Source: Coriobacteriia bacterium
Lineage (GTDB): Bacteria > Actinomycetota > Coriobacteriia > Coriobacteriales > UBA8131
Length of the DNA: 28,083 nt
Direction of reading: 5' to 3'
Assembly: GCA_009779015.1 (NCBI GenBank)
Contig: WRFC01000001.1
Location: 1-28,083, forward strand
The notes beneath the pieces were generated by a model. That model ran no database searches and had not been told where the DNA came from. It saw nothing but the letters and a program-made list of their open reading frames with translations. Of the stretch, positions 584 to 19,755 are shown in pieces; positions within the stretch are counted from its first letter, which is position 1; every line of letters begins with the position of its first letter. Position numbers and translations under genes: made by a program.

Positions 584-667
584 TACAGGGGGATGGGACG
601 TTTATGCCGTCAGGCATATACGGTCTCGCCTGTAAAAGTCAGTTGTAGATTGGGATGGGAGAAATCT

Positions 668-2293
668 ATGTCGAATCGCTTTCGAGAGGCTTTGGAGTCT
701 GGCGAGTTCGTCGTTACCTGCGAGTTAATCCCAGGTAGGGGCGCAAACGAGCCGTCTCAGGTGAAGGAGTACGATGCCGCAGTAGCAATTTACGGGACTG
801 GTCGGGTACACGCAATCTCCATCACCGACAACCCAGGGGGAAACCCAGCAATTGCTGCTGATGCCTTCGCTGATGAGCTGGAGAATCAGGGTGTCCCGAC
901 ACTGGTGCACTTCACTTGCAAAGACAAGAACCGTAACCAGATGCAAGCCCAGCTGTACTCCATGCAGCGCCGCGGCCTCGAGAACCTGCTCGTAATGTCT
1001 GGCGATTACGTGTATTCAGGCTGGGAGGGGCGTTCGCGGCCAGTCTTTGACCTCGACCCGGTCCAGGCTACGATGCTGGTCACCGACATGAACTCTGGCC
1101 TCGTCATCAAAGGCCCAAAAGGCGACACGCGCGAACAAGCGGCGCATTTCTACTCGGGTGCTTGTGTCAGCCCCTTCAAATGGACAGAGGCCGAGACGAT
1201 GACCCAGTATTGGAAGATGGAGAAAAAGCTCGCTGCGGGCGCTAACTTCATCATCCAACAGCTTGGCTATGATGCCCGGAAGATGGAAGAGCAGCTCTTC
1301 TATGTCCGTGAAAAGGGCTACGGCGACGTCCCCATGATCGCCAATATCTATATCATCTCCGCCGGTGTTGCCAAATTCATGAAGGGTGGCAACATCCCTG
1401 GCGGCTTCATGAGCGACGAGCTTCTCGGAATCCTTCAAGAAGAGGCAAAAGCCGAGGATAAGGGCAAGGCCACTCGCTTGCTCCGGGCCGCCAAGATGGT
1501 CGCGATCGCTCGCGGCCTCGGTTATGCTGGCGTGCATATCGGTGGCAATGGCCTGACTGCCGAGATCTTCAACACGATCCTTGACCAAGCTGACGAGATC
1601 CAGGACCAATGGCGCGATTGGGTCAAAGAGATCCATTATGGACAGCCGGACGGGTTCTATCTCTACAAGCCCGAGCTGGATGCCAACGGCGTCCCTACCG
1701 GGTTCAATACGCATGAGCGTGCCCCGCTGACCGACAGCTATCACAACAAAAAGAAGATCCTCAAGGGCTACGGCCTTTCCCGCGCCTTCCATTATTGGGT
1801 CTTGACGCCAAACAAGCGCTTCTATGGCATGCTCCGTTCGCGCATGGATGGCCTGGACCGCAAGAAGGGCGTGAACCGCGAACACGGCTTAGAGCACACC
1901 TGCAAGGCCATGCTCTATGGCTGCATGGATTGCGGAGACTGCGGCCTCTTGGTCACGAGCTACACCTGCCCGATGTCCGGATGCCCAAAGAGCCAGCGCA
2001 ATGGACCATGCGGTGGCGGTGCCGATGGCTGGTGCGAGGTCTACCCGAATGAGCGCTATTGCATCCATGTCAAGAACTACCATCGGCGCAAGAAGTTCAA
2101 CGAGCTTGTAGAGCTTGATTCGTTCATCACTCCCCCCAACAACTGGGACTTCTCCCACACATCCGGGTGGAGCAACTATACCCATGAAAGAGATAACACC
2201 TACGGGCGGACTTATCTCCAAACACCGGACCAGCGGCCGCAGGCTGCCAAAAATAAAAGGACCGGAGCCGAAAACGAGAGTAAGGAGAGTTAA
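668..2293 (+). CDS. metF: Methylene-THF reductase (MetF) with fused C-terminal MetV-like (MTHFR_C) Cys-rich domain
   Basis: TCELIPG (catalytic Glu), ISITDNPGG, HFTCKDKN, VMSGD, GANFIIQQLGYD; C-terminal CMDCGDC..CP..CPKSQRNGPCGG..CEV..C. ATG at 668 follows a GGGAG SD; the ORF-track start at 593 is probably too long. Confidence 0.9.
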   Translation: MSNRFREALESGEFVVTCELIPGRGANEPSQVKEYDAAVAIYGTGRVHAISITDNPGGNPAIAADAFADELENQGVPTLVHFTCKDKNRNQMQAQLYSMQRRGLENLLVMSGDYVYSGWEGRSRPVFDLDPVQATMLVTDMNSGLVIKGPKGDTREQAAHFYSGACVSPFKWTEAETMTQYWKMEKKLAAGANFIIQQLGYDARKMEEQLFYVREKGYGDVPMIANIYIISAGVAKFMKGGNIPGGFMSDELLGILQEEAKAEDKGKATRLLRAAKMVAIARGLGYAGVHIGGNGLTAEIFNTILDQADEIQDQWRDWVKEIHYGQPDGFYLYKPELDANGVPTGFNTHERAPLTDSYHNKKKILKGYGLSRAFHYWVLTPNKRFYGMLRSRMDGLDRKKGVNREHGLEHTCKAMLYGCMDCGDCGLLVTSYTCPMSGCPKSQRNGPCGGGADGWCEVYPNERYCIHVKNYHRRKKFNELVELDSFITPPNNWDFSHTSGWSNYTHERDNTYGRTYLQTPDQRPQAAKNKRTGAENESKES

Positions 2294-3091
2294 ATGATCA
2301 TCATCGCCGAAAAGATTAATGGATTTATCAAGAGGACGATGGAAGCCATCGAGGCAAAGGACGAGGCCTATCTGAAGGAACTCGCCGTCAAGCAGACCGC
2401 CGGTGGAGCCAGCTACATCGACATCTGCGCAGGCACCATGCCTGAAGTCGAGCGCGAGACCATGGAATGGTTGATCAACCTCGTACAAGACACTGTAGAC
2501 ACACCACTGAGCATCGACAGCTCCGACCCGCAGGTCATCGTCGATATGCTCCCGTTGGCCAAAAAGCCTGGCCTGGTCAACTCGATCTCCATGGAGGCCG
2601 GCAAGGCTGAGACCGTGTTCCCGGCAATCGAGGGCACAGAGTGGAAAGTCGTCGCACTGACCTGCGACAACGACGGAATTCCGGATACTGCCGAAGCTAA
2701 GTTCGAAATCGGCAAGAAGATCATTGAGCAGGCCGCCGAATACGGCATCGGCCTTGACCGCCTCTTCATCGATCCATGCGTAACCACGCTTGCGACCACC
2801 CAGAACTGCCTGGTCAGCTTTATCGGCGCCATGAAGCTCCTGCGCGCTGCTTATCCGGGCATTCAGTTCACATCCGGCCTTTCGAATATCTCTTTTGGTA
2901 TGCCTTACCGCAAGGCCATCAACATGCAGTTCCTCGCCCTCGCCCTTTATGAGGGTATGGACAGCGCTATCATCGATCCGACCTCTTCTGACATGCAGGC
3001 CGTTCTGCATGCAGTCGAAGCCCTGCTGGGCCATGATGAATACTGCATGAACTACCTGACCGCCTTCCGTAATGGCATGTTCGGCAAGTAA
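2294..3091 (+). CDS. acsE: Methyl-THF:corrinoid methyltransferase (AcsE/MeTr family, pterin-binding TIM barrel)
   Basis: MIIIAEKING, YIDICAG, PLSIDS, LVNSIS, LFIDP, GLSNISFGMP. Abuts the metF stop, with AGGAG SD. Confidence 0.88.
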   Translation: MIIIAEKINGFIKRTMEAIEAKDEAYLKELAVKQTAGGASYIDICAGTMPEVERETMEWLINLVQDTVDTPLSIDSSDPQVIVDMLPLAKKPGLVNSISMEAGKAETVFPAIEGTEWKVVALTCDNDGIPDTAEAKFEIGKKIIEQAAEYGIGLDRLFIDPCVTTLATTQNCLVSFIGAMKLLRAAYPGIQFTSGLSNISFGMPYRKAINMQFLALALYEGMDSAIIDPTSSDMQAVLHAVEALLGHDEYCMNYLTAFRNGMFGK

Positions 3092-3266
3092 ACTTAGAGA
3101 CCAAGTACTATTGACAAGGGGTTTTGTCCAGGGCTTGATGAACCTTGGGCCTAAAAGTTCTAAATTTGAGGGTAACTGGGGTCTCATCAGCCCCAATCCC
3201 CCCTATCAGAAGTGCGGAATAGCAAGAACATCGTCTATGTCTTTTTGACAGAAGGAGTGACGTACT

Positions 3267-4943
3267 ATGGCAGAAATTAAATCCGATATCGAGATCGCGC
3301 AATCTGTAACGCCGCGTCAGATCACCGATGTCGCGGCCGACCTGAACCTCGACAAAGAGTATTTCGAGCCCTATGGCTATTACAAAGCCAAGATCGATTT
3401 TAATGTTTTGAACAAGATCGACCGTCCCGAGGGAAAGCTGATCCTCGTCACAGCCATTACCCCAACGCCTGCTGGCGAAGGTAAGACCACGACCACCGTA
3501 GGCCTTTCAGACGGCCTGAAGAAGCTTGGCAAGAACGTTGTCGTCGCACTGCGCGAGCCCTCGCTCGGCCCGGTCTTCGGCGTCAAGGGCGGTGCCGCTG
3601 GCGGCGGTTGGTCTCAGGTCGTTCCGATGGAGGACATCAACCTGCACTTCACCGGTGACTTCCATGCCATCAGCGCAGCCAACAACCTGCTCGCAGCCTT
3701 GATCGACAACCACATCTATCAGGGCAATGCCCTGGACATCAACGTCCGCAACATCACCTGGAGGCGCTGCGTCGACATGAACGACCGTCAGCTGCGCTTT
3801 ATCGTTGACGGCCTCGGTGGCAAGTCCAATGGCGTTCCGCGCGAGGATGGCTACGACATCACCGTCGCTTCTGAGATCATGGCCATCTTCTGCCTGGCCA
3901 CCTCGGTCACCGACCTCAAAGAGCGCATTGCGCGCATCATCATCGGCTATAACCGTGCAGGCGAGCCTGTCACGGCCGGCCAGCTGAACGCCCAAGGCGC
4001 CATGGCTGCCCTCCTCAAAGATGCCTTGAAGCCGAACCTTGTCCAGACCCTCGAGGGCACACCGGCCTTCGTCCATGGCGGCCCCTTCGCCAATATCGCA
4101 CATGGCTGCAACTCCATCATCGCCACCCGCATGGCCTTGAAGCTCGGCGATTATGCCGTCACAGAGGCTGGCTTTGGCGCTGACCTCGGTGCTGAGAAGT
4201 TCCTGGACATCAAGTGCCGTGTTGCTGGCCTGAAGCCTTCTGCTGTCGTCATCGTCGCCACCGTCCGTGCCCTCAAGATGCACGGTGGCAAGCCGAAGAC
4301 CGAGCTGAACACCGAGGACCTGGTAGCCCTGAAGGCCGGCCTCCCCAACCTGCTTCAACACGTCTCGAATATCACAGACGTCTTCCATCTGCCGGCAGTC
4401 GTGGCCATCAATGCCTTCCCAACAGATACCGCAGCTGAGCTCCAGCTGGTCGAAGACGAGTGCAAGGCCCTCGGCGTCAATGCCGTTCTGGCTGAGCATT
4501 GGGCAAAGGGTGGAGAAGGCGCCCTCAAGCTGGCCGAAGAAGTCATTCGCGTGACTGACGAGCCCAATAACTTCACGCAGTCCTATCCGCTCGATATGAG
4601 CATCGAGGATAAGATCAACGCCATCGCCACAAAGATCTATCATGCAGACGGTGTGGACTATACCCCGCAAGCCAAGGAGCAGGCGAAAGTCCTGACCAGC
4701 CTCGGCTTTGACAAGCTCCCGATCTGCATGGCCAAGACACAGTACTCATTCTCTGACAATATGGCCCTTTTGGGTGCCCCCAAGGGCTTCAGGGTCACCG
4801 TACGCAACCTCAAGGTCTCGGCCGGCGCTGGTTTCATCGTCGCACTGACAGGCGAGATTATGACGATGCCTGGCCTGCCCAAGCTGCCTGCGGCTGAGAA
4901 GATCGATGTCGATGCCAGTGGCGTGATCTCAGGACTGTTCTAA
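3267..4943 (+). CDS. fhs: Formate--tetrahydrofolate ligase
   Basis: [68 protein letters not shown]; 558 aa. Confidence 0.98.
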
Positions 4944-4945
4944 TA

Positions 4946-5581
4946 ATGGACACTGCGTTCACAAAACGCTCCTGCGAAGACTTCGTTGATGTCCTCGCAT
5001 CGGCTGCACCGGTGCCCGGTGGCGGCGGCGGCTCAGCATTGGCTGGTGCGCTTGGCACCGCCCTTGGCAACATGGTCGGATCACTGACTGTCGGTAAGCC
5101 AAAGTTTGCTGATGTCGAGGCCGATATGATCGAGCTCAAAGCAAAGTGCGACGACTTGCAAAGACGATTGCTTGACTTGGTGGCCGCAGATGCCGAGTCT
5201 TTTCAGCCTCTCTCCAAGGCCTATGGCCTGCCCAAAGAGACAGAAGAGGAGAAGGCGCATAAGGCCGAAGTAATGGAGGCCTGTCTGCGTGAGGCTTGTT
5301 CTGTGCCGATCGCGATCATGGACGCCTGCTGCGAGGCCATCGATGTACACGAGCAATTTGCCGCTAAAGGCACGCCGATCGCAATCTCAGATGTCGGCGT
5401 TGGCGTGAAGTTCTGCCAAGCTGCTCTACAAGGTGCAAGCCTGAACGTCTTTATCAATACGTCTTCAATGACTGACCGGGCTTACGCCCAAGAGGTCGAA
5501 GACAAGGCAAACAAGCTTCTGGCAGACTATGTGCCAAAAGCCGAATCGATCTTCCAGGACGTTGCTCGACGTTTTAAGTAA
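4946..5581 (+). CDS. fchA: Methenyl-THF cyclohydrolase (FchA; cyclodeaminase/cyclohydrolase family)
   Basis: FVDVLASAAPVPGGGGGSALAGALG, D-A-E-S-F, AISDVGVG, LNVFINT; 2 nt after the fhs stop. Confidence 0.88.
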   Translation: MDTAFTKRSCEDFVDVLASAAPVPGGGGGSALAGALGTALGNMVGSLTVGKPKFADVEADMIELKAKCDDLQRRLLDLVAADAESFQPLSKAYGLPKETEEEKAHKAEVMEACLREACSVPIAIMDACCEAIDVHEQFAAKGTPIAISDVGVGVKFCQAALQGASLNVFINTSSMTDRAYAQEVEDKANKLLADYVPKAESIFQDVARRFK

Positions 5582-5593
5582 ACTCTCGAACAG

Positions 5594-5628
5594 AAAAAGG
5601 GACATGCCCGGGCATGTCCCTTTTTTTT
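5594..5628 (+). terminator. Intrinsic terminator between fchA and folD (possibly bidirectional)
   Basis: AAAAA-GGGACATGC-CCGG-GCATGTCCC-T8; 5594-5625 is a perfect palindrome. Confidence 0.8.
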
Positions 5629-5651
5629 ACGAGGATAAGAAAGGAGCCAAT

Positions 5652-6503
5652 GTGGCTACGGTACTCAAAGGGGCTGAGGTGTCAGAAGCCCTGAACACGA
5701 AGATCATGGAAGAATCTGAGGCGCTGAAGGCCATGGGCGTCAACCCGACATTAGCGATCCTCCGGGTCGGCGAGCGCGGAGATGATATCTCTTATGAAAA
5801 GGGAGTGACCAAGCGTGCAGAGAAAGTCGGGGTGGCTATCAAGAACGTATTGCTCCCCGCAGATGTCGCTCAAGAAGTTTTAATTAAGGCTATTGAGGAC
5901 CTGAACGCGGACAAATCCGTTCATGGGGTCTTGATGTTCCGCCCGCTCCCAGATCACCTTGATGAAGACGTTGTGAGAAACATGCTCGAGCCGAGCAAGG
6001 ACATTGACGGCATTACCGATGCTTCGATGTCTGGGGTATTCGCAGGCATCCATACGGGTTTCGCACCTTGTACGCCATCCGCGTGCATGGAGATCCTTGA
6101 GCATTTTGGTGTTGACGCAAAGGGCAAGCATGCAGTGGTAGTCGGCCGCAGTCTTGTGGTTGGCAAACCTGCAGCCATGATGCTTTTAGACCGAAACGCC
6201 ACAGTCACTATCGCACACTCGCGGACAGCAGACCTCCCATCAGTCGTCCGTGAGGCTGATATCGTGATTGCTTGTGTCGGTCGCGCGAAAATGGTAGAGG
6301 CAAGCTACCTGAAACCTGGGCAGATTGTCATTGATGTGGGTATCAATGTCTTAGAGGATGGCTCGTTGTCTGGAGATGTTGACTTTGAGGCGGCTTCATC
6401 GATCGTCGAAGCCATCACGCCTGTCCCAGGCGGTGTCGGAGCCGTGACCACAAGCGTGAACTTAAAACATGTGGTCGAAGCTGCGCGCAATCAAAACAGT
6501 TAA
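5652..6503 (+). CDS. folD: FolD-family methylene-THF dehydrogenase, probably lacking cyclohydrolase activity
   Basis: KDIDG, PCTP, VVVGRSLVVGKP, AHSRT, VIDVGIN, GDVDF, ITPVPGGVG. GTG start at 5652 after AAGGAG; the ORF-track start at 5529 runs through the terminator. Confidence 0.93.
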   Translation: MATVLKGAEVSEALNTKIMEESEALKAMGVNPTLAILRVGERGDDISYEKGVTKRAEKVGVAIKNVLLPADVAQEVLIKAIEDLNADKSVHGVLMFRPLPDHLDEDVVRNMLEPSKDIDGITDASMSGVFAGIHTGFAPCTPSACMEILEHFGVDAKGKHAVVVGRSLVVGKPAAMMLLDRNATVTIAHSRTADLPSVVREADIVIACVGRAKMVEASYLKPGQIVIDVGINVLEDGSLSGDVDFEAASSIVEAITPVPGGVGAVTTSVNLKHVVEAARNQNS

Positions 6504-6533
6504 CAAGAAACTCGAAGAGCAAGACAATAAAAT
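6503..6533 (+). promoter_or_regulatory. Putative promoter of the FNT gene (same architecture as the metF and mtaB promoters)
   Basis: ACAAGAA (6503-6509), 18 nt, TAAAAT (6528-6533). Confidence 0.4.
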
Positions 6534-6633
6534 TACGATGAACATTAGAGCTTTGATCTATCAAGGCTCTAATGTTTCTTACCTCAAAACGTTTTAATGG
6601 CATTACCAAGGCAAGAGGAGGAGGATCAAGCTC

Positions 6634-7536
6634 ATGGATGATAACGATATTATTAAGGAGATCAGGCAAGATGTCGCGGCCATTCGACCAGATGTTTTAG
6701 TGCCATCAGAAATCGTTGCAAAAGCCGAAGCGATCGGCCACGGAAAAGCCAATACAGAGTTCTTAAGGTTGGCTGTATTAGCGGTGATGGCCGGCTTGTT
6801 TGTCGGTATGGGCGGAATGTTCTTGCTCTTGATCAAATCAGATACGAGCCTCCCCTACTTTGCCAGCCAAATACTCGGTGGCCTTTGCTTTTGCCTAGCC
6901 CTTTTCTTGGTCGTAGCCGCCGGAGCCGAGCAGTTCGCAGGCAACACCTTGATGGTCGTCGGAAGCCTGTCCAAAAAATACAGCTGGGGCAGCCTTTTGC
7001 GGACTTGGGGCATTGTCTGGGTGTTTAACTTCGTTGGATCGCTGCTGCTGGTCTTCCTCCTCTTCTTTGCTGCCTATTGGAAGGCCGACGGAGGCGCCAT
7101 TGGGGTCGCTATGGTCACAGTCAGCCTAGACAAGATCGCTCAAGGTCAAGCCAGCCTGGGGCCGTCCGGCTGGGTGACTATCCTTTTTAAGGGCATTATG
7201 TGCAACTTCCTCTTTGGCCTGGCTGTTTGGATCGGTTACTCAGGACGCACCGTTGTCGACAAGCTGGCAGCTATCGTATTGCCAGTGACAGCATTCGTGG
7301 CCTGTGGCTTTGAGCACAGCGTCGCTAACATGTTCTTGCTTCCGATGGGGTGGCTGATCAAGGTCACTGGGGTCATCGACACCTCGGCCATCAGTGGCAT
7401 CAACATGCTGTCGGTTGGTGGGATCTTCTATAACATCTCTGCCGCCACAATCGGGAACATCATCGGTGGCGCTGGCCTGGTCGGGTTATCCTATTGGTTG
7501 GCCTACCGGAAGAGTCAGAAAGTAAAAAATTCCTAG
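6634..7536 (+). CDS. Formate/nitrite transporter (FNT, FocA/FdhC family) with non-canonical pore residues
   Basis: AVMAGLFVGMG, GAEQFAGN, GNxVGS-like NFVGS, KGIMCN..LAVW, FVACGFEHSVANM, TIGNIIGG; six hydrophobic segments; GGAGGA SD. Confidence 0.92.
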   Translation: MDDNDIIKEIRQDVAAIRPDVLVPSEIVAKAEAIGHGKANTEFLRLAVLAVMAGLFVGMGGMFLLLIKSDTSLPYFASQILGGLCFCLALFLVVAAGAEQFAGNTLMVVGSLSKKYSWGSLLRTWGIVWVFNFVGSLLLVFLLFFAAYWKADGGAIGVAMVTVSLDKIAQGQASLGPSGWVTILFKGIMCNFLFGLAVWIGYSGRTVVDKLAAIVLPVTAFVACGFEHSVANMFLLPMGWLIKVTGVIDTSAISGINMLSVGGIFYNISAATIGNIIGGAGLVGLSYWLAYRKSQKVKNS

Positions 7537-7828
7537 TAATTATCCCTGTCAAAAATTGAATGCAGCTATACCGTTCACGGTTGAACATTATCCACTCACA
7601 GAGGGAGGTTTTGCCTTGAAGCGGCAGAGCTGTGAAATAGAAGGTTTAGATTTCAACTTCGTTAAAAAAGGGTTACAATGTTTTTCTGCATTGTTATGTC
7701 ATGGTTTAAGGATCAAGATGATTTGCGGGCTTGCTCCACGAATTGACTGAGGAGTCGGGAGCAAATAATCAATTGCTTATAAAGGGAGAGGGCAATTTTC
7801 GCATTAGCAGGTCCAGGGAGGGCTTACA

Positions 7829-9097
7829 TTGCAGTTTGATTCGCTTAGGGATTATTCTCTGATTACCGGCATTGGAATACAGGTTGTAAACAGGAATGGT
7901 GTAGCCTCTTTTGCTACTGACCAATATCTGAAAACCCAGGATGCCTTGTTATTTCTTGCTAATTTACTGAATGTCGGCCATCTGACCGAAGCCGTAAAGG
8001 TCAAGAGCCTGATTCGCTCTACCGAGTATGGCGGTTTATATACCTTCCTCGATCCACGCGGCCTGACTTTTATTACGGCGCCGATCTCCAAAGGGCAAAA
8101 CTGTAACCGTTTTGTCATTGGCGGCCCGATCATCCTATCTGATTTAGATGATTATCTGAATTTCGAAGTGCTGCCTCAGGCCAATAACTCTAGCTTCGGA
8201 CCGCAAAAAGTCCGCGAGATCGTTTCCGCAATCCCCGTCTGCACTCCATCGCTGGTCTCAGCTTTCTCTGAACAGCTTTTTGTGAACTCAGCATTCATCA
8301 ATGGCGGTAATACCAACCAGTCCAGCCCGTCAGATAAACTCCTCTACAATTTTGTTGATAACTACGACTACACTGACAACGTCGATCTGCCAAACCTGCG
8401 GATAAAAAGCTATATGTACGACAGCCAAAGAGAGGTCGATGAGCAATATCGCCTTCTCAAGACGCTCAAGAGCCAAGAGGAGCTGCAGGCCAAGATCCTG
8501 TTAAACGAGATACTCGAGCAAATCCTCTTTCACCCGCGTAACAACCTGGACTTCATTAAAAGCCGCGTTGTCGAGCTCTTGACGATCATGACACGCTCAA
8601 CGATCAGTAATGGCGCTGATGTGAAGATGGCGACTTTTATTCGTAATAAGGCATTTGTGGAGATCGAAGAACACAAGACCCTTGATGACATTGTGATCTG
8701 GCTGAACGAGCTTTTTGAGCGTTTCTCCTCACATACTTTTAAGAACCCACACTCTAAGCACGCTGACGCAATCAAAGAGTCATTGGCTTACTTGCTCGAG
8801 CATTTCAGCGAGAAGATCACCTTGAATGACGTGGCCGCGCATGTCTCTTTTAGCCCGACCTATCTTTGCACAATGTTCAAAAACGAGATGGGCCAAAGCT
8901 TTAAAAGCTGCTTGAACCGCATCCGCATAGAAAAAAGCAAAGAGTTGATGCCAAATCACGATCTCAGCATTGCCGATATCAGCTACAAAGTCGGTTTTGC
9001 AGATCAAAGCTATTTTGCGCGCGTCTTTAAACAATACGAAGGCATTACGCCTTATCACTACCGGCTCACAAGCAAGCCGACAGGCGCTGAAAAGTAG
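7829..9097 (+). CDS. AraC-family transcriptional regulator with N-terminal PocR-like sensor domain
   Basis: C-terminal ITLNDVAAHVSFSPTYLCTMFK...SIADISYKVGFADQSYFARVFKQYEGITP (AraC HTH); N-terminal TGIGIQVVNRNG and GLTFITAPI...IGGP resemble PocR. TTG start after GGGAGG. Confidence 0.85.
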   Translation: MQFDSLRDYSLITGIGIQVVNRNGVASFATDQYLKTQDALLFLANLLNVGHLTEAVKVKSLIRSTEYGGLYTFLDPRGLTFITAPISKGQNCNRFVIGGPIILSDLDDYLNFEVLPQANNSSFGPQKVREIVSAIPVCTPSLVSAFSEQLFVNSAFINGGNTNQSSPSDKLLYNFVDNYDYTDNVDLPNLRIKSYMYDSQREVDEQYRLLKTLKSQEELQAKILLNEILEQILFHPRNNLDFIKSRVVELLTIMTRSTISNGADVKMATFIRNKAFVEIEEHKTLDDIVIWLNELFERFSSHTFKNPHSKHADAIKESLAYLLEHFSEKITLNDVAAHVSFSPTYLCTMFKNEMGQSFKSCLNRIRIEKSKELMPNHDLSIADISYKVGFADQSYFARVFKQYEGITPYHYRLTSKPTGAEK

Positions 9098-9244
9098 TCG
9101 GCTTTCAGATAAATCGACGAGGCTTTGTCGATGCCAGATTTCGTAAATTGAGCGAGGAGCCTGAGCCCCCGTTAAATGAGTTTTGCTGAAAAATGGATTA
9201 GTTGTATTTTATTCAGCTCAAGGTAATTTCCTACGGATTGTTCA

Positions 9245-9285
9245 GAAATAATTACAAGAAAGAACGTAGACAGCAGCCTTACACT
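9245..9285 (+). promoter_or_regulatory. Putative activator-dependent promoter of mtaB
   Basis: GAAATAATTACAAGAA (9245-9260; 13/16 identical to the metF copy), 19 nt, TACACT (9280-9285). Confidence 0.45.
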
Positions 9286-9346
9286 AAAGCTAGTGCTTGG
9301 GCAAACAATATCCATTTTGAATCGATTCTGAAGGAGATGTGAGCTT

Positions 9347-10744
9347 ATGGGAAAAAAGAGCTATACCACAACCGCATATACCAATGTAGATGATTTTATC
9401 TATGGTAAAGCGGTTACCCCCGTCACCACAAAGCGGGGTCTCGTAATTGGTGGAGGCAAGGTGTATCCAGAGGTAAACTTCACCCTGCCGACAATGCTCG
9501 TTACCAAAGAGACGATGCCGGAAGTCCTGGACATTTACAGGGAGATCGCAGACGGCATCTGCGCCCGTGCAGTCGATCTGGAGCTTGAAGGCGTCCAGCT
9601 AGAGTGCGAATGGGTACCCCAAACGACATTTGAGCCTGAGTGGGGCATTCAGCACATGCAGGTCATCGAAGAGGTAGTCGAAGGCTACTATCAGAAGTAC
9701 GGCCTGAAGGGCTCTATCCGCTCAACGCCAGTCGATGTCCGTGAAGTTGGCGCGGCAGAAGGCCTAGAGCATATGTGGCACGGATCGCTCTGGGACAAGG
9801 TTGTTCGGTCCATGGAAGGCAGCGCGGCTGCTGGTAACGACTTCCTCTCCATCGAGTCAATCGGCGGCAAGGATGTCCACGACGAAGGTCTGATGTACAA
9901 CGATATAAGCAAGATCATCTTTGCCCTTGGCGTTCTTGGTGCCAAGGATATGGAAAAACTGTGGGGCATGATCGTCGACGTCGCAGCCAAGCACCCCGGC
10001 TGCCGTGCTGCTGGCGACACCGCCTGCGGTTTTGCCAATACCGCTATGGTTTTGGCTGAGCAGAACTACATTTCCCGCGTCTTCGGCGCCACCGCCCGCG
10101 TTGCCGCTACTGTCCGCACCATGGTTGCCAACCAAATGGGCGCCACCGGTCCGGACAAGGACTGCGGTTATGAGGGTGTCATCGTCAAGGCCATCACCGG
10201 TACCCCGGTCACGATGGAAGGCCATGTGGCTTGCGTTGCCCACCTTTCTCGCGTTGGTAATGTTGCGATTTGCTGCGCCGACCTTTGGAGCAACGAGTCA
10301 ATCCAGCACATTAAACTGCTCGGTGGCTGGGGCGAGGTTGTCGGACTTGAGCAGCTCACCTATGACTGCCGTCTTCTCAATGGCGCCCGTGACAAGGGTT
10401 GGGACCATGAGCTTCAATCTCTGTATGCTGATAGCGATAGCTACCTTGATCCTCATGCTTACATCCTGCGTCCGGATGTCGCGCTCGAGATTGCCAAGGG
10501 CATCGTCTCTGCTCCTGACAATGCATTCCTGCGCGTCAAGAAGGCCGTCGAAATGGCCCTTAAGGTTATGCGTCAGGGCTACAACGACAAGCGTCTGCGC
10601 TTGAACGACCGTGAGCTTTCTGCTCTTGGCCAGCTTGAGGACGATTTAGGTGCTATCACTGATGATGAAGGCGCCTTCACCGAGGAGCAGATTGCCTCGA
10701 ATAGCGACAATCCGAAATTCAAGCCGGCTCTCTACGATCTGTAA
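9347..10744 (+). CDS. mtaB: Methanol:corrinoid methyltransferase (MtaB family)
   Basis: DDFIYG..PVTT..GLVIGGG..YPEVNFTLP, FLSIESIGGK (E170), AAGDTACGFANTAM (C227), GPDKDCGYE (K271/C273), WSNES, EQLTYDCRL, DPHAYILRPD. These match the recalled MtaB Zn ligands (Glu/Cys/Cys) and the bacterial MtaB N-terminus. Confidence 0.93.
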   Translation: MGKKSYTTTAYTNVDDFIYGKAVTPVTTKRGLVIGGGKVYPEVNFTLPTMLVTKETMPEVLDIYREIADGICARAVDLELEGVQLECEWVPQTTFEPEWGIQHMQVIEEVVEGYYQKYGLKGSIRSTPVDVREVGAAEGLEHMWHGSLWDKVVRSMEGSAAAGNDFLSIESIGGKDVHDEGLMYNDISKIIFALGVLGAKDMEKLWGMIVDVAAKHPGCRAAGDTACGFANTAMVLAEQNYISRVFGATARVAATVRTMVANQMGATGPDKDCGYEGVIVKAITGTPVTMEGHVACVAHLSRVGNVAICCADLWSNESIQHIKLLGGWGEVVGLEQLTYDCRLLNGARDKGWDHELQSLYADSDSYLDPHAYILRPDVALEIAKGIVSAPDNAFLRVKKAVEMALKVMRQGYNDKRLRLNDRELSALGQLEDDLGAITDDEGAFTEEQIASNSDNPKFKPALYDL

Positions 10745-10795
10745 ACCGATTACTTGCAGAACAAAAGTCAGAGTTGATTAAGGCTCTGGCCGAAC

Positions 10796-10836
10796 AGCAG
10801 ACCGGATCCCGAGAAATTCGGATCCGGTCTGCTTTC
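10796..10836 (+). terminator. Strong hairpin downstream of mtaB, likely terminator
   Basis: AGCAGACCGGATCC...GGATCCGGTCTGCT, a 14-bp perfect stem followed by TTCT. Confidence 0.7.
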
Positions 10837-11027
10837 TGACTATCAAGAAATAGGCCGTTAGCAAAGGAGGGGTCTTTTTTTCGCCTGCAATGCTGTATGG
10901 CTTGATATCATATTGTGTGGAGGGGTTTTCCCAGTATTTATGTTATTTTTCACCCAGCTATAGGCTGTATTTCATTGATAATATCTGAAGCTTGTTTCTC
11001 AGGAGTGGAGTATCAGGAGCAGAGAAG

Positions 11028-11639
11028 ATGCCAGAAGCAAAGGTCATCAGGAAGAAAAAGTTGCGGAGCAAGGCTTTGGCGGCGAGAAGTGCCATGACAG
11101 CAATCGAAAGAGACGCATGTAGCTCTCGGGTCTGTATGCAACTGAAGGCCAGGTTAAACGAGCTTATGGACCGCCGTTTTCAAGCACCAGCAACAATTGC
11201 CGTCTATGCCGCCATGGGCGACGAGCTAAACCTTGCGTCTTTTATCGCCTCAGCATACAGTATGCCTAATATCACTGTCTGCTTCCCTTGCATGGAGCCA
11301 CGCGGAGACCAGAAGATGTCAATGCGTAGAGTCGCGCACACCAACTATATGGCCGGTGCAGTCCCATTTATTAATAACCCGCTTGAAGTGTTTAGCCCAC
11401 GCAGCCAAAAACTCTTGCCCTATACGCGTGTCAACCCCAAGATAATTGACTTTATTGTGGTGCCGCTTGTCGCTTTTGACGATTTTGGCAATCGCCTTGG
11501 CTATGGTGGCGGAAATTATGACCGCTTTCTCCCGCTCTTACGCAAAGATACGACGATCATCGGTGTCGCCTTTGAGGCCCAACATCTCGACGGGTTGCCA
11601 ATTGAAGAGCATGACGTTCCTCTGAGTATTATTGTTTAG
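11028..11639 (+). CDS. 5-formyltetrahydrofolate cyclo-ligase
   Basis: KKKLRSKALAAR, IAVYAAMGDE, VCFP, IDFIVVPLVAFDDFGNRLGYGGGNYDRFL, LPIEEHD. ATG at 11028 after AGGAG. Confidence 0.9.
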   Translation: MPEAKVIRKKKLRSKALAARSAMTAIERDACSSRVCMQLKARLNELMDRRFQAPATIAVYAAMGDELNLASFIASAYSMPNITVCFPCMEPRGDQKMSMRRVAHTNYMAGAVPFINNPLEVFSPRSQKLLPYTRVNPKIIDFIVVPLVAFDDFGNRLGYGGGNYDRFLPLLRKDTTIIGVAFEAQHLDGLPIEEHDVPLSIIV

Positions 11640-11782: not shown

Positions 11783-13327
11783 TCAGACCTCAAAATACAT
11801 GTTTGTAATGAACTGGTCATCAAACATCTCATGTGCGGCCAAGTTGATCTCGTGACCGCCCTCTGCCAGGTCAACGAGGCCAGCCCGGGCACTTTCGTTC
11901 AAGCACGCTTTAACAGCGCCACTGAGGGAACTGTTACCGATCGCCTGAACGCGCCCAGAAAAGCTCTTGGGCAGCATTCCTGTTGTCAACGCACTTTCTG
12001 GGTTCAGGTTCTGCCCAAAACCACCTGCTAAAAAGACCTTCTTCGGAATATCCCCGCCCATCACGGCCATAATGATCTCTAGGCCTGAACGTGTAGCGCT
12101 CTTTGCCAATTGGAACTGGCGCAGGTCCTTCTGCGTGAAATAAACCTCGCCGCTATCCAGCGCTGGATTCTTGGCCAACACGATGCGACCGTTCTCGACC
12201 TTGTCGGTCATCAACCCTGTCTCGTCAATAAACCCTTCGCGCACCAATACCGCCATCAAGTCCAAGATGCCAGACCCGCAGATGCTCGTTGGCGGAGCAG
12301 CACCGATCGTCTGCAGCTTCCACTCGCCATTCTCGTGCTCGACCACTGAGATGGCGCCCTTTGTGCTGCCAGAGCCGCACTCGATGTTTCCTCCCTCAAA
12401 GGCTGGGCCGGCTGCCGTAGCCGTGCAGACCAGCTGATCGCCACGTTTGAAAATCAGCTCGCCATTCGTACCCATATCCATCAGGATGAAGTCATCTTCG
12501 GCACCCAGCGAACAGAGGCCGGAGGTCAAGTCGCCGCCGACATAGGCAGAGATGAACGGCATCACAGTGACATCGCAGTCTAAGGTATCTGTCTTAAAAA
12601 TATCCTTGTATTTTTGATCGACCGGATAATAGTAGTCCGGCTCAAATGGCACAAAGCCAAGCGAGCGGCACGGGGCGTTCAAAAGGATATAGGTCATTGT
12701 TGTGTTACCAGCGATTACAACGCGTTTGATCTGGCTTGAATCGACCCCGCTGTCCTTGATCATATTGGCAATGTCCTTGTCAATCTGCTTTGTCACAATC
12801 GCCGAGAGCTCAGAGGCATCGTCGAGCGAGACATTAATGCGTGATATGACATCGGCGCCATAAGGCAGCTGTTCATTCAATTGGGCAAACGAAGCAAGCT
12901 CGCCGCCTGTTTTCAAGACAATCAGCTTGCCCACGATCGTCGTTGTTCCAATGTCCACGGCGATTGCCAGATCTGAGGCAAGCGCATCGTCAATACTTCC
13001 TTCATCGATGTATTCGCCCTCGCGTGGGCCATCCGAGTCAACCTGGATGGCATAGCCTTCGTCACTCTCTTGGCTCGGTATCAGGACCTCAACATCCTCC
13101 ATCACGTATGTCCGGCAAGATAGGCGTTTCTTTCCGTTTACCCTGACCACGCACTTTCCACAACGACCGATTCCTCCACAATCGGCATGCAACTTAAAAT
13201 TCTCTTCGCGAATGATCTCGAGTAGGTTCTTTCCGACCTCTACATCAAGCTCAACGCCTTCTTCCGGAAATTTGACATGTCTTTTTTCTTCGCTCACAAC
13301 TACCCCTTTCGGATGCTGCGTCAACAT
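11783..13327 (-). CDS. ASKHA-domain reductive activator of corrinoid proteins (RACo/RamA-like) with N-terminal [2Fe-2S] domain
   Basis: ADCGGIGRCGKC...RLSC (2Fe-2S), AVDIGTTT, YGADVISRI, YVGGD, MDMGTNGEL, ATAAGPAFEG, ICGSG, FQLAKSA, LAGGFG, GNSSL. The real start may be GTG at 13297. Confidence 0.92.
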   Translation of the reverse strand: MLTQHPKGVVVSEEKRHVKFPEEGVELDVEVGKNLLEIIREENFKLHADCGGIGRCGKCVVRVNGKKRLSCRTYVMEDVEVLIPSQESDEGYAIQVDSDGPREGEYIDEGSIDDALASDLAIAVDIGTTTIVGKLIVLKTGGELASFAQLNEQLPYGADVISRINVSLDDASELSAIVTKQIDKDIANMIKDSGVDSSQIKRVVIAGNTTMTYILLNAPCRSLGFVPFEPDYYYPVDQKYKDIFKTDTLDCDVTVMPFISAYVGGDLTSGLCSLGAEDDFILMDMGTNGELIFKRGDQLVCTATAAGPAFEGGNIECGSGSTKGAISVVEHENGEWKLQTIGAAPPTSICGSGILDLMAVLVREGFIDETGLMTDKVENGRIVLAKNPALDSGEVYFTQKDLRQFQLAKSATRSGLEIIMAVMGGDIPKKVFLAGGFGQNLNPESALTTGMLPKSFSGRVQAIGNSSLSGAVKACLNESARAGLVDLAEGGHEINLAAHEMFDDQFITNMYFEV

Positions 13328-14820: not shown

Positions 14821-15354
14821 TTAGATAAACTGCACCAGGACACTTGAGCTATCGCCCAGGTCAAAGACCTGGAGGAGCAGGCGTTGGCCTTTTTCGGTGC
14901 TGCTGCCCCAACTGTAAGAACTGAGCAGCTTGGTCTGGCTGTCATCCTGGCCAGTGCCACTGTCAGCCGATTGCCACCCTTGGGCTAAGAGCAGCGCGTT
15001 GGTCGTTTGCTTGGCCTCAAAGGCCGTCAGCCCCGAGCTGTACGAGAGGATGCGCCCATCTGGGCTGACCGCATCGAGCTCAAAGGCGGAGCCTGGCGCC
15101 ACCAGCCCCAGCGGGTCAATGCTTGTGCCGCCAATCTGAGTCGGGCCGTTTTGGCTGGCGCCCCAGACATCTGCAACCGTCGGCACTGCGCTCTGGCCAC
15201 GCTGGCAGCTGGACTGGATGCCCAAGACGCTAAAACTGACGACCATGGCTAGGCCGAAAAGCATGGCTATGCGCAAGTTCCGCTTGCCTCGGCTTGGTTT
15301 ACCTTGGCTTTGCCTGCCTTGGTTTCGCTGGCCATGATTCTGCGTACTCACCAA
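14821..15354 (-). CDS. Membrane-anchored hypothetical protein in the tad operon
   Basis: Basic N-terminus, one hydrophobic segment (IAMLFGLAMVVSFSVLGI); overlaps the upstream TadE-like gene. Confidence 0.65.
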   Translation of the reverse strand: MVSTQNHGQRNQGRQSQGKPSRGKRNLRIAMLFGLAMVVSFSVLGIQSSCQRGQSAVPTVADVWGASQNGPTQIGGTSIDPLGLVAPGSAFELDAVSPDGRILSYSSGLTAFEAKQTTNALLLAQGWQSADSGTGQDDSQTKLLSSYSWGSSTEKGQRLLLQVFDLGDSSSVLVQFI

Positions 15355-15842
15355 AGCACCCCCGGGCGATAAGGGTCAATGACCAGCCTGCGGGTATGCT
15401 CGACCTGAAAGAGCTTGAGGCCAAAGACCGCTTTTTGGAATGGCCAGGGCGTATAGGTGAGCCGACAAGTATAGGCCTCTTGTTTGGGCAACAAAGAGAA
15501 TGCCAGGCCGCCGCCAGCATCCTCTGAGCTGCCTCCTCCCCAAGCCACCGCTTCTGCCTCGACCTTGACCTGGACATCAGGATAATCAGAAAAAGCCCCT
15601 CTCAGCAGCTGCTCGCAGGAGTCTGCCCGGCTGGCCATCCCATACGACCCGGAGGCCGGGCTGGCCGCCTGAGTGCGCACGGCCTGTTCGACCAGACGGT
15701 CGAAACGGGCAGAGGCCGCCAGATAGTTCAGGCAGTTGAAGAGGATCAAGGCCACAACGATCAGCACCGGCATCAAAACGGCCATCTCTACGGCCATCTG
15801 CCCGCGTTCATCGAGCAGGTGTGGCCTCTTATTCCCAAACAT
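15348..15842 (-). CDS. TadE/TadF-like pseudopilin
   Basis: DERGQMAVEMAVLMPVLIVVALIL, a prepilin-type G|Q-x-x-x-E motif plus hydrophobic helix. Confidence 0.8.
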   Translation of the reverse strand: MFGNKRPHLLDERGQMAVEMAVLMPVLIVVALILFNCLNYLAASARFDRLVEQAVRTQAASPASGSYGMASRADSCEQLLRGAFSDYPDVQVKVEAEAVAWGGGSSEDAGGGLAFSLLPKQEAYTCRLTYTPWPFQKAVFGLKLFQVEHTRRLVIDPYRPGVLW

Positions 15843-18072
15843 CAGTGACCGTCCCATCCTTAAAGACCTTTCTGGCAGAATCCAACACGCCCTGGACCTT
15901 CTTCTTCCCTTCCTCTACAACCGCAGCCGGGAACTTGATCCGGACCGGTAGGCTGGGCGCTCCGGGAAGGTCGCTGAACCGCAGTTCGAACAGGGTTATC
16001 CCCTCATCTGTCAACGTTGTCTCGAGGCTGTCTAACTCGCCCTCTAACCCATCAAAGACCGTGTCGCCAATCGTCCCGCTGCCCTCGCCAGGCAATGCAG
16101 CATAGCCCGTTTTCATGTTCACGAGCCCCTGAACGACCGCTGATGGAGAAGCGCGGGCAACATGGATGCTGTTTACTACGACGGGTTTGGGCGAGGCCAG
16201 CTTGACGCCCTGCAGGCCGAGGCCTTTGATACAGCCTGTTACCGCATTCTCTGCCCATTCAGCCAAAGGCGTGAGGTGGATCAGCCTTAAGAAGTCACCG
16301 ACGGCCGGACCGAGCCCGTCCACCCCCGTGCTATAGGCCGAGAGCGCGCCGCCCCAGATCTCGAGGATGGCGTCAAATGCATCGAGGCCGAGCTTTCCGG
16401 CTGCCGGGCCGCTGAACTCGGCCTTCGCCCGGTCTAAGAAGTCACCCAGCAGGTTCTCATCAGACGATCCGGTGGCCAGGGCGGCGGCCGAGATGGCCAT
16501 GCGCACCGGCACCTCTTTTTTTCCGTTGATAAAAGGGCTTTGCAGGCCTTTGGGCAGCTCACGCTGGGATACGTCGAGCACAACCACGATGCAGCCGTTG
16601 CGTCCTGGTGGGAGCGGGTTGATACGCGTGGTCTTGAGGGAGTCGATTGCCTCTTGATAGACATCGACGCTCTTCTGGGCTTCGGCCTTGGCCTCTTTTT
16701 GGGCCTCGGAAAAGCGTTTTGAGGCTTCTTCGTAAAGGCGGGCGGCCTCAGCCACGGCCCGGTAGTGGTATTCAAAGCCAGTATCGATATTGCTCGTGGC
16801 CGAGCCGACGCGCCCGATCGTATTGATGCTCAGGTTGCAATACGGGCAGGCTTGGTATAAGCCGCCTTCCAGGCCGGCGATAGAGCCAAAGCCGCCTGCC
16901 CCGGCTTCTTGGTAGTAGGGGCATTGGCTGCTCCCGTGCAGGCAGCCGTTTGCATCCAAGGGAAAATCAGCGTCGGTATAAAGCCTGGTCTGCCGAACTT
17001 CGTCGTTGTTTTTGGCCAACAACGGAAAATAGGCATCCATGCTCCCGTCATCCGAATAGTGTACATAGCCTTTCTGCATTTCTTGGACAGCATAGCGATA
17101 GTACCGATAACGGGCTTCGGAGCGGACGGCTTCATCGAGGCTTGGGTCCTGGGGGCCTTCTTGCGCCAGGCGGGCCGCATAATAGCTCTTGGCCCGGTCT
17201 AAGGCCACTGAGAAGGACCAGCTCTCAGGGCTAGAAAAATACGGGTTAAAAAACCCTCTCATGTCAGCCAGGCTAGTCGCCCTCTCGTAGAGGCAATGGT
17301 TGGGGCTGGCACCACAATCGGCCAGCCAGCCGGCATACTCTGAAGTGTCCATGTCTTTTTTGGCCTCTTCGGCCTGGTCGCTCTTCTCTGCAGTCTTCTC
17401 GCTTGAGTCAGACAGTCGGCCGCTCAGCTCATCACTGTGGCCGTCATCGCCAAAACTTGCGTCCTCGGCCGTAAACGGGACAAGGAGGGCGGCTCCGAGG
17501 TACGATGTACCACCAGCGGGGCTGTTCGCACTGATCGTGGCAGCCGAGTTGACGGCCGCTAAGAAGGGCAGGACCTTTTGCAGCTGGGTCAGCGCCTGGC
17601 CGGCCTGCTTGGCAATCTTGTCGCGCGTCGTAAAGACCTTTCGGCCAAAATCCATGATCTTCACGCCGATACCCTGGCCGCCGGGAATGCAGCTGGCGAT
17701 TATCCCCACTCCTTCGACCGCAATGCCAAAAAGGCTCATTGAGAGCACGACGGCATCTGCGCTACGGGCGACGATGTAGTACTCGGCCACGACGTTCTCG
17801 GCCGCCAGGGCGCCTGCATCGGCCGCAAATTGGATGTCACCCGAACGGGCGTTGACCCAATAGATCTGCGCCGAGGCAAAGATCAGTGTTACCGCCAGCG
17901 CCAGGGCGATGGCGACACCGACGCTCGTGAACCCGCCTTCAGGCTCTAGCCATGGCCAGGGGCGGCCGCGCCTAGCGCCTCGAGGGCGCTGCCGCTGGGA
18001 GCCCTGGTTGCTGCATTCGGCCTTTTGTTCGCTCATTGCCTGTCTCATTGCTCGTCCCATTGCTTGACCCAT
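15829..18072 (-). CDS. Large TadG-like pilus protein (N-terminal Tad helix, Cys-containing extracellular region)
   Basis: EGGFTSVGVAIALALAVTLIF...DIQFAADAGALAA; 747-aa ORF in operon context; start uncertain (several Met near 18072-18036). Confidence 0.75.
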   Translation of the reverse strand: MGQAMGRAMRQAMSEQKAECSNQGSQRQRPRGARRGRPWPWLEPEGGFTSVGVAIALALAVTLIFASAQIYWVNARSGDIQFAADAGALAAENVVAEYYIVARSADAVVLSMSLFGIAVEGVGIIASCIPGGQGIGVKIMDFGRKVFTTRDKIAKQAGQALTQLQKVLPFLAAVNSAATISANSPAGGTSYLGAALLVPFTAEDASFGDDGHSDELSGRLSDSSEKTAEKSDQAEEAKKDMDTSEYAGWLADCGASPNHCLYERATSLADMRGFFNPYFSSPESWSFSVALDRAKSYYAARLAQEGPQDPSLDEAVRSEARYRYYRYAVQEMQKGYVHYSDDGSMDAYFPLLAKNNDEVRQTRLYTDADFPLDANGCLHGSSQCPYYQEAGAGGFGSIAGLEGGLYQACPYCNLSINTIGRVGSATSNIDTGFEYHYRAVAEAARLYEEASKRFSEAQKEAKAEAQKSVDVYQEAIDSLKTTRINPLPPGRNGCIVVVLDVSQRELPKGLQSPFINGKKEVPVRMAISAAALATGSSDENLLGDFLDRAKAEFSGPAAGKLGLDAFDAILEIWGGALSAYSTGVDGLGPAVGDFLRLIHLTPLAEWAENAVTGCIKGLGLQGVKLASPKPVVVNSIHVARASPSAVVQGLVNMKTGYAALPGEGSGTIGDTVFDGLEGELDSLETTLTDEGITLFELRFSDLPGAPSLPVRIKFPAAVVEEGKKKVQGVLDSARKVFKDGTVTDVWE

Positions 18073-18623
18073 TCAGCGGGCCCTCCCTGTCCTTCCCAGA
18101 CCCAGTCCGGCTGGCTGGGCATTTTGACTTCGACGACCTGCTCGATGTTGCCCTCAGCATCGGTCTTGCCTAAGAGCTGAGCGCCCAAGCCGATCAAAGG
18201 CAAGGGCTTGAGGTGGTTGACGATGCGCACGCTGACCTCGGGGCTCTCTTCTCCCCCGGTTAGCTCGATCGTCCAGGAGTCGCCATTCGGGTGTGCGTGA
18301 AAGATATCGATTGGTGGGATCGCGGCCAGGCGCCGCTTGGTATAACCCAGGTATTTCTCGTCGCTATAGCCGCCGAGCGCCGTGCGCGTGGCCAGCAGGC
18401 GGCAAGACTCGGCGGCAGCGTTCTCCATGATGATCTGGTTGTAGAGGAGGATCGCAGGCTGCAACAAGATCAAAATGAGCAAGAAGAGGGTGGGGATCAG
18501 GACGGCGGCCTCGACCGTGGCCTGGCCGTGCGTGTCGTGGACGGCTCGGGCGGCCTGTGTTTTGACCTGGTGCCTGGCCGGCCTGCCTCGCTTTATGGGT
18601 CTACCCAGCATTGTTACGAACAT
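18045..18623 (-). CDS. tadE: TadE-like pseudopilin
   Basis: HGQATVEAAVLIPTLFLLILILLQ...AAAESCRLLA. Confidence 0.82.
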   Translation of the reverse strand: MFVTMLGRPIKRGRPARHQVKTQAARAVHDTHGQATVEAAVLIPTLFLLILILLQPAILLYNQIIMENAAAESCRLLATRTALGGYSDEKYLGYTKRRLAAIPPIDIFHAHPNGDSWTIELTGGEESPEVSVRIVNHLKPLPLIGLGAQLLGKTDAEGNIEQVVEVKMPSQPDWVWEGQGGPAEWVKQWDEQ

Positions 18624-18635
18624 AGCCGCTCCTTC

Positions 18636-18863
18636 TTAGTAAAGCAAGACATCGCCGATGCTGCCCACGACTTGCTGTCCCAAGGCATGCGACGCGCTCT
18701 CGATGCCGTGCTCGATGAAGGTCCCGTCGCCGATGCGCGCCTGCCAGGCGGCCAAGGCAACGATCATGGCAATCAGGATCAGGCCGACGATCGCATACTC
18801 GACGGTCGCTTGGCCGTTTTGGTCGCCCAACCGGGCTTTTAACGCACTGAAGACGGACCTCAT
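18636..18863 (-). CDS. Second Flp-like small pilin
   Basis: DQNGQATVEYAIVGLILIAMIVAL; 75 aa. Confidence 0.72.
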   Translation of the reverse strand: MRSVFSALKARLGDQNGQATVEYAIVGLILIAMIVALAAWQARIGDGTFIEHGIESASHALGQQVVGSIGDVLLY

Positions 18864-19549
18864 GGTTGGGCCTCGAGATCTGGTATCTTCAGCTCGACCA
18901 GGCGGACGACCAGCGGGTTAGACTCCGAGACCGTCCGGCCAAGGCATTCGGGTATGACGCTGATCAGCAGCACATTGCCGTCAGTAGAGGTTGCCGTGCA
19001 TGACCAGGACTGCTGCCCGAGGTCGATATAGCCGCTCCGCTCGAGCTTGTAGTCGTTGCCTTGGAGGCCTCGCAGCAGCAGCTCGCCGACCTCGGGGCAG
19101 CTTTGGCTGCTTTCCAGCTCCCAGCTGCGCAGGTATTTGTCCTCGTGGTAAAGAGGCGGCCCGGGCTGGCTCGAACTGATGCCGGCGAGCGGAATGGGCG
19201 GCAGGGAGCCTGCCTCGGAGGCTGGGCTGGCGTCTTGGGCAGCAGTGCTCTCGTCTGGAGAAGCGCTGCTGGAGGCGCTGCTTGGCGTGCCACTTAATAC
19301 GCCGTCTGACGTGCTGCCCGCCACTCCGCTGGGGATGCCGGCAGAGGTGTCATGCGGGAACCCGCCCGCCGTGCCAGACGAGGCCACGCCGTGGCCCTCT
19401 GCGGCCACGAGCCCGCTTTCCTGGAGGACATCGACTTGCTTTGATAAAAGGCCGTGCCCGAGATAGGCCGAGAGTGTGCCTGCGAGTACCAACATCAGGA
19501 TCCCTGCGGTAGCGAAAGCGTGTTTATGTTGGTTCTTATACCATCCCAT
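18860..19549 (-). CDS. Membrane-anchored hypothetical protein with Ser/Gly/Ala-rich linker
   Basis: N-terminal hydrophobic stretch, low-complexity middle, C-terminal domain with three Cys; alternative start at 19495 (TGATG coupling with flp). Confidence 0.65.
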   Translation of the reverse strand: MGWYKNQHKHAFATAGILMLVLAGTLSAYLGHGLLSKQVDVLQESGLVAAEGHGVASSGTAGGFPHDTSAGIPSGVAGSTSDGVLSGTPSSASSSASPDESTAAQDASPASEAGSLPPIPLAGISSSQPGPPLYHEDKYLRSWELESSQSCPEVGELLLRGLQGNDYKLERSGYIDLGQQSWSCTATSTDGNVLLISVIPECLGRTVSESNPLVVRLVELKIPDLEAQP

Positions 19550-19755
19550 AAAGCCTGCAATTTTCCACTGAACGCCATTACCGCAATAATGGCGATGACC
19601 ACCAACACCCCGACCAGAATTGCATATTCTGTTGTCCCCTGCCCCCGTTGGTCTCTCAAGGCCCGGCTCAGCTGACCGATCATCATCTGGCAGCGGATGG
19701 CCGCTCGGGTCGGGGCCTCTGTTAAAAAACCTCTTCTTTTTTCCATCATCATCAC
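19495..19755 (-). CDS. flp: Flp family type IVb major pilin
   Basis: DQRGQGTTEYAILVGVLVVIAIIAV, the canonical Flp G|Q-x-x-x-EY motif. Confidence 0.88.
   Translation of the reverse strand: MMMMEKRRGFLTEAPTRAAIRCQMMIGQLSRALRDQRGQGTTEYAILVGVLVVIAIIAVMAFSGKLQALWDGIRTNINTLSLPQGS

Follow-up and report, generated by a model that had tools for sequence, protein, structure and literature searches.

A FocA-type FNT channel with a naturally altered cytoplasmic slit, encoded in a C1 gene cluster of a termite-gut Coriobacteriia genome

The cytoplasmic slit of E. coli FocA is made up of L79, L89, T91 and V175, of which T91 is paired with H209 (Mukherjee 2017, PMC5525234). The slit positions hold subfamily-specific differences between FNTs and are thought to set selectivity; a survey of 2206 FNTs found L89 in 99.9%, T91 in 97.9%, and Val, Ile or Met at position 175 in 99.9% (PMC5525234). 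Mutagenesis of E. coli FocA indicated that H209 is needed for pH-dependent uptake and that the exchanges H209N/Q yield an efficient efflux-only channel, while T91 can be replaced only by Ser: other exchanges severely impair efflux, and the uptake of both formate and hypophosphite is lost (PMC11841067, PMC9380403). In yeast, the L89A exchange alone barely altered transport by FocA and the double exchange L79A/L89A nearly abolished it. Water and neutral methylamine crossed FocA only when both constrictions were removed, and it has been proposed that the lipophilic constrictions screen the central His from bulk protons (PMC8749060). How FNTs move the anions of weak acids is disputed, with a proton relay between Thr91 and His209 on one side and, on the other, the dielectric-slide model, in which protonation takes place in the vestibule. 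In this family of thousands of members, which includes the antimalarial target PfFNT, few residues are as strongly conserved as Thr91 and Leu89. HSC T84A/L82V mutants (PDB 3te1, 3tdx) were reportedly described by Czyzewski and Wang in 2012.

The window analyzed here, a 28,083 bp stretch of DNA from a Coriobacteriia bacterium, contains a FocA-type FNT gene at positions 6634-7536 of the forward strand, which was identified from the list of ORFs, from Pfam family PF01226 and from an AF2 model. The gene is intact: its 300 codons plus stop contain neither internal stops nor frameshifts, and a Shine-Dalgarno-like run (GGAGGAGGA) that was graded strong is present 8 nt 5' of the ATG. Scanning of the region around the gene for promoters and terminators gave results no better than those obtained with shuffled sequences. 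The GC content (0.53) and GC3 (0.66) are like those of the neighbouring genes. We rejected recent horizontal replacement on the basis of this native composition and of the position of the protein as sister to a syntenic orthologue (see below). A sequencing or assembly error was rejected as well. Independently assembled Logan contigs from two termite-gut metagenome runs (X1 and X2, whose near-identical depth means that they may be one data set filed twice) contained the identical stretch at ~76x word depth with 0 variants.

The encoded protein matched Pfam PF01226 (Form_Nir_trans) over the entire profile (1-240 of 240) with an E value of 1.3e-60 and a score of 205.2 bits, well above the gathering cut-off of 34.6. 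The FocA proteins of E. coli, Salmonella and Vibrio (3kcu, 9g49, 3q7k, 3kly) are the best match among known systems (E 1e-46, ~35% identity), and they share with the window FNT a six-helix aquaporin-like protomer with omega- and S-loops. In agreement with this, the AF2 model of the protomer, calculated with 98 homologues as input (pLDDT 94.6, pTM 0.90), superimposed on cryo-EM structures of E. coli FocA, including 9g49, with a TM score of 0.92 and an rmsd of 1.7-2.0 A. The predicted protomer has six helices arranged as in aquaporins, with a break in TM2 (omega-loop) at residues 97-100 and a break in TM5 (S-loop) at residues 224-228. The best NCBIfam model was also FocA, yet the scores were under the equivalog cut-offs (194.1 vs 290.1 for TIGR04060, and 169.8 vs 440 for NF008069). 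As the relatives P0008, P0003 and P0007, which have a canonical pore, are also under the FocA equivalog cut-off (215-233 bits), this shortfall is a property of the Coriobacteriia clade. Judged by homology, the window protein is a member of the FNT family with a non-canonical slit.

Pore residues were numbered according to E. coli FocA (3kcu) using a phmmer alignment that is ungapped across the motifs for E. coli, Salmonella and Vibrio FocA. Five residues in the slit region differ from E. coli FocA: G78A, L89Q, T91A, V175F and C176G. Of the cytoplasmic slit, only L79 is kept: L89, T91 and V175 are replaced, and so are two flanking residues, G78 and C176. A previous sequence-only reading had assigned L89Q, T91A, V175F and a retained His209 by manual alignment; the phmmer alignment places Q100 at L89, A102 at T91, F194 at V175 and H228 at H209, and agrees with it in full. 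Also correct were the three motifs that it read in the 300-aa product (GAEQFAGN, CNFLFGLAVW and FEHSVANM) and the first nucleotides that it gave for the codons of Q100 (6931), A102 (6937), F194 (7213) and H228 (7315), and its structural premise, an L79/L89/V175 constriction with a T91-H209 pair, is in line with published work (PMC5525234). It did not include G78A and C176G, which both affect invariant neighbouring positions. The further claim, that the T91-H209 pair is needed more for uptake than for efflux, holds for H209 and fails for T91, which is needed for efflux too (PMC11841067, PMC9380403). A channel that has kept H209 and lost T91 therefore does not bear the signature of an efflux valve.

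All of the following features are on the forward strand. The G78A change (6898-6900) is located at the end of TM2a, in the pair A89-L90 (6898-6903) that corresponds to E. coli G78-L79; the slit residue L79 is unchanged, and Gly occupies position 78 in 119/119 homologues and in 29/29 FNTs of relatives. The omega-loop GAEQFAGN (residues 97-104; 6922-6945) contains Q100 instead of L89 (6931-6933) and A102 instead of T91 (6937-6939), with E99 and F101 kept. The TM4 motif CNFLFGLAVW (residues 190-199; 7201-7230) retains N191 (N172) and contains F194 instead of V175 (7213-7215) and G195 instead of C176 (7216-7218). The end of TM5a and the S-loop (7294-7332), which include the motif FEHSVANM (residues 226-233), contain F221 (F202), E227, H228 (H209), A231 (A212) and N232 (N213), so that the central constriction and the His are canonical here. 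On the periplasmic side, in the region 7132-7167, the alignment of homologues revealed that the conserved K167 (K156) is followed by an insertion of eight residues, GQASLGPS (171-178; 7144-7167). This insertion is unique, since 0/119 homologues have residues at this place, and it was modelled with a pLDDT of ~71.

Unchanged with respect to FocA are F75, L79, F90, K156, N172, F202, E208, H209, A212, N213 and N262. The window FNT thus possesses the central His, the Phe/Phe/Ala constriction and N172, N213, N262 and K156, indicating a canonical central constriction and a canonical scaffold network. The omega-loop Leu-x-Thr and the Val, Ile or Met at position 175, which are conserved features of FNTs rather than formal criteria for membership, are replaced by Gln-Phe-Ala and by Phe, respectively. 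The window FNT differs from FocA, then, by five changes in the slit region, by the insertion after K156 and by the fact that no PflB partner was found in its genome. It is plausible that the alteration of the pore matters for its function.

The altered slit was found nowhere else. The canonical pattern G-L / E-L-F-T / N-x-x-V-C was present in 119/119 nearest homologues (44-59% identity) and in all 29 FNTs, some as little as 29% identical, that 40 related genomes yielded. We also inspected 150 distant representatives, taken from clusters at 50% identity of 1.84 billion proteins. Among these, position 89 was Leu in 147, Val in 2 and Gln in 0; position 91 was Thr in 146, Ala in 1 and Gly in 1, the latter in a partial sequence of 213 aa; and position 175 was Val in 140, Ile in 6 and Phe in 0. 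The solved FNT structures that were aligned (FocA, LCIA) all have the canonical motif. A degenerate DNA scan for G[AS]EQFAGN, from which the source genome of the window was left out, gave 101 matches in 185,579 species genomes, 0 of them an FNT by tblastn, and at least 118 matches in metagenome contigs, with 0 FNTs by tblastn among the matches listed; both sets are attributed to chance. A word-indexed search of 5.8 billion proteins with the omega-loop region (84-124) and the TM4 region (178-218) retrieved no other protein with the variant words, and the window FNT forms a singleton cluster. The combination of Gln89, Ala91 and Phe175 was absent elsewhere in these searches, and Gln89 or Phe175 occurred in none of the sets examined. 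The sequence-only reading had allowed for QFA variants being common in unrelated contexts; in everything searched the variant was unique.

Residues regarded as invariant in the FNT pore are occasionally replaced in other natural proteins, as in FNTs with YMTV or YLTM slits of low hydropathy and in His-less FNTs with Asn or Gln. Another such outlier is P0221 (GCA_041890195.1, locus L259, 1874-2761), also a singleton FNT, which has a natural T91A exchange (ELFASN) and Met at the position of L79. It is the sole intact protein without Thr91 among the 150 cluster representatives, and a molybdopterin oxidoreductase gene immediately precedes its own.

The FNT gene is embedded in a C1 gene cluster (593-11639, forward strand) that, according to Pfam scans, consists of metFV, a pterin-binding methyltransferase gene, fhs, fchA, folD, the FNT gene, an AraC-type regulator gene, mtaB and a 5-formyl-THF cyclo-ligase gene. 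The same order of nine genes is present in a sister Coriobacteriia MAG (GCA_003509825.1, locus L002, 2198-13059). The cluster neighbours of the two loci are 75-91% identical, and the FNTs are 55% identical. The cluster has another fast-evolving gene, that for the 5-formyl-THF cyclo-ligase (window 10992-11639), whose product is 56% identical to the L002 counterpart. The alignments of the L002 fhs and mtaB genes are each broken into at least two pieces, suggesting that this record contains frameshifts or was misassembled. In the tree, the FNT of L002 (P0008, HBT95309.1) is the sister of the window FNT with a support of 0.945, and both are on long branches (0.55 and 0.44). This syntenic orthologue has the same position in the cluster (metFV-MT-fhs-fchA-folD-FNT-araC-mtaB-MTHFS). 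It has a canonical pore (ELFTGN/VCLAVW; G/L/T/V/C at the five positions) and is without the 8-residue insertion. Synonymous sites are saturated between the two genes, and each of the five changes corresponds to one non-synonymous nucleotide change relative to the P0008 codon. The sequence-only reading had raised the possibility that QFA/FG variants co-occur with mtaB; as the FNT encoded with mtaB at the syntenic locus L002 has a canonical pore, the variant pore is not tied to mtaB. A further relative, L005, also carries the arrangement MTHFR-fhs-folD-FNT. The adjacency of FNT and fhs genes shared by these relatives indicates that it is ancestral here and implies a role in formate transport.

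The source genome is a termite-gut genome that is 59% complete. It contains ACS (CdhC domain, in an open frame of 1207 aa) and at least six matches to corrinoid-binding proteins. No PFL was found in this 59% complete genome, and the gene is linked to fhs and folD instead of being coupled to PFL as focA is. No molybdoenzyme encoded by it reaches the FDH cut-off either, the best matches being generic proteins of the DMSO-reductase family, and no second FNT was found in it. The sole genome of the same genus among the 40 related genomes, 51% complete, yielded no FNT. The gene set would fit a methylotrophic, possibly formate-exchanging, acetogen-like member of the Coriobacteriia.

Based on comparison of sequences, we tentatively favour the explanation that the window FNT is a still-working pore for formate or formic acid with a co-adapted inner gate. 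It is orthologous to the canonical FocA-type FNT encoded beside fhs-fchA-folD in related Coriobacteriia and would be the lineage's own formate channel, with a slit and gate rebuilt on the terminal branch by five single-nucleotide substitutions at neighbouring sites. In an extended loop, side chains two positions apart, as at residues 89 and 91, generally face the same side. Gln100 may offer a polar, hydrogen-bonding group toward His228/Asn191, as the omega-loop Thr does in other FNTs, Phe194 could fill the volume freed by the exchange of Thr for Ala, and the neighbouring Gly/Ala and Cys/Gly swaps would permit repacking of the helices. The sum of the side-chain volumes of the slit is 440 A3 for the window residues LQAF and 446 A3 for the canonical LLTV, and its hydropathy decreases from +11.1 to +4.9. 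A slit of the same size that is much less hydrophobic would be expected to result in altered gating or proton coupling rather than in a new size class of substrate, and the channel would serve formate exchange for an Fhs-centred methanol/THF pathway.

The engineered FocA variants studied in the Sawers and Beitz laboratories (T91A and other T91 exchanges, L89A, L79A/L89A and H209N) include single-site equivalents of two of the natural changes. They bear on the favoured explanation in both directions. By direct extrapolation from E. coli FocA, which is blocked by any exchange of T91 other than for Ser, a T91A channel would be dead, and this counts against a working pore. We count in its favour the confinement of the changes to the slit region and the unrelaxed remainder of the protein (see below), the conserved slit volume and the confident model, that L89A alone is barely harmful to FocA in yeast (PMC8749060), and that the gene, located next to fhs, encodes the only FNT found in a genome in which no FDH or PFL was found. 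In the window FNT, unlike the engineered proteins, T91A occurs together with a polar Gln at the second residue before it and with a larger Phe on the opposite side. The more specific proposal that a natural FNT conducts formate without the omega-loop Thr, because the Gln two residues upstream partners the central His and Phe175 re-seals the slit, is doubtful. Nevertheless, the window FNT and its canonical sister P0008 constitute a natural pair for addressing the necessity of the Thr hydroxyl and the role of the lipophilic slit; activity of the window FNT would mean that a hydroxyl at position 91 is not obligatory in the FNT mechanism, and would make the protein a natural example of changed proton coupling, which may be an adaptation to pH and formate conditions in the termite gut.

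A rather unlikely alternative is that the channel has been re-specified, the slit passing another weak-acid anion (acetate, bicarbonate, nitrite or hydrosulfide) instead of or besides formate, or barring a toxic analogue. The open-state slit set of the window FNT has a hydropathy of +2.4, below the minimum of +3.1 reported among 2206 FNTs, and the changes affect positions thought to set selectivity (PMC5525234) in a targeted rather than diffuse manner. The unique insertion after the periplasmic Lys would also be in line with a changed substrate. The central constriction, which contributes to selectivity too, is unchanged, however, and so is the volume of the slit. Moreover, FNT subfamilies that do transport other substrates (NirC, HSC, LCIA and PfFNT) all keep Leu-x-Thr. 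The genetic context does not favour re-specification either: the gene stays beside fhs, the cluster has acquired no new partner enzyme, and the copy in the sister cluster has a canonical, formate-type pore.

It is unlikely that the pore is inactive, T91A together with L89Q having ended translocation in a recently disabled or decaying copy whose frame is still open. Such a copy would agree with the block in both directions caused by T91 exchanges except Ser in E. coli, with the near-abolition of transport by L79A/L89A and with the singleton status of the protein, and it would mean that a formate-linked C1 pathway runs without its channel. Eight of the 64 highly conserved columns differ in the window FNT, the most in the set and a point in favour of decay. 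Three of these departures, at columns conserved in at least 95% (I57V, A164S and C229S), all occur in other members, and the Ser of C229S is also the residue at position 210 of E. coli FocA. The other five are private: at the 35 columns that are invariant in the 119 homologues the window FNT has 5 private changes and every other sequence has at most 1 (Poisson expectation 0.62; P about 4.5e-4). All five are located in the 8 invariant columns that are within one residue of a slit residue, and none in the remaining 27, which are kept in full (hypergeometric P 1.7e-4). In Tajima relative-rate tests with 7 outgroups the window FNT and P0008 evolved at equal rates (e.g. 38 vs 34; all p > 0.09). Finally, a profile built from the other 118 sequences gave 396.5 bits for the window FNT, 415.8 bits when the five sites were set to the consensus, and 417.4 bits for P0008, indicating that outside the slit both proteins fit the family equally well. 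Several tests thus argue against a protein-wide relaxation of constraint. Also against an inactive pore are the open frame over 300 codons with its strong Shine-Dalgarno-like run, the conservation of volume by the substitutions, and the fact that no other FNT was found in the genome and that the pathway around this one produces or consumes formate. Judged from the alignments, the five changes do not look like decay but like a targeted rebuilding of the inner gate that left its volume about the same. The window FNT is a real natural variant of this well-known channel family, backed by statistics and so far without a second example.

The sequence-only reading proposed two functions, an efflux-dedicated formate valve and the passage of a neutral solute (e.g. 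methanol). Both are largely not supported and very unlikely: the less hydrophobic slit speaks for them, and export would be sensible if the cluster ran from methanol to formate, no FDH having been found, but the efflux-only phenotype is that of H209N/Q and loss of T91 hinders efflux, neutral solutes require that both constrictions go whereas the window FNT has an unaltered F75/F202/H209/A212 constriction and a slit of conserved volume, the mtaB cluster of the sister has a canonical pore, and methanol crosses membranes without a channel.

Beyond the C1 cluster, Pfam scans identified a gene for a RACo-type corrinoid activase on the reverse strand (11783-13327). Elsewhere in the source genome, the contig region C2:11520-11984 and contigs C83, C50 and C106 contain genes for ACS, corrinoid proteins and many molybdoenzymes of the DMSO-reductase family. 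The C1 cluster is followed in the window by a Tad/Flp-type pilus block on the reverse strand (14821-24904), which includes genes for TadE-like proteins, two T2SSF-type (TadB/C-like) proteins, a T2SSE ATPase and a ParA/CpaE-like ATPase.
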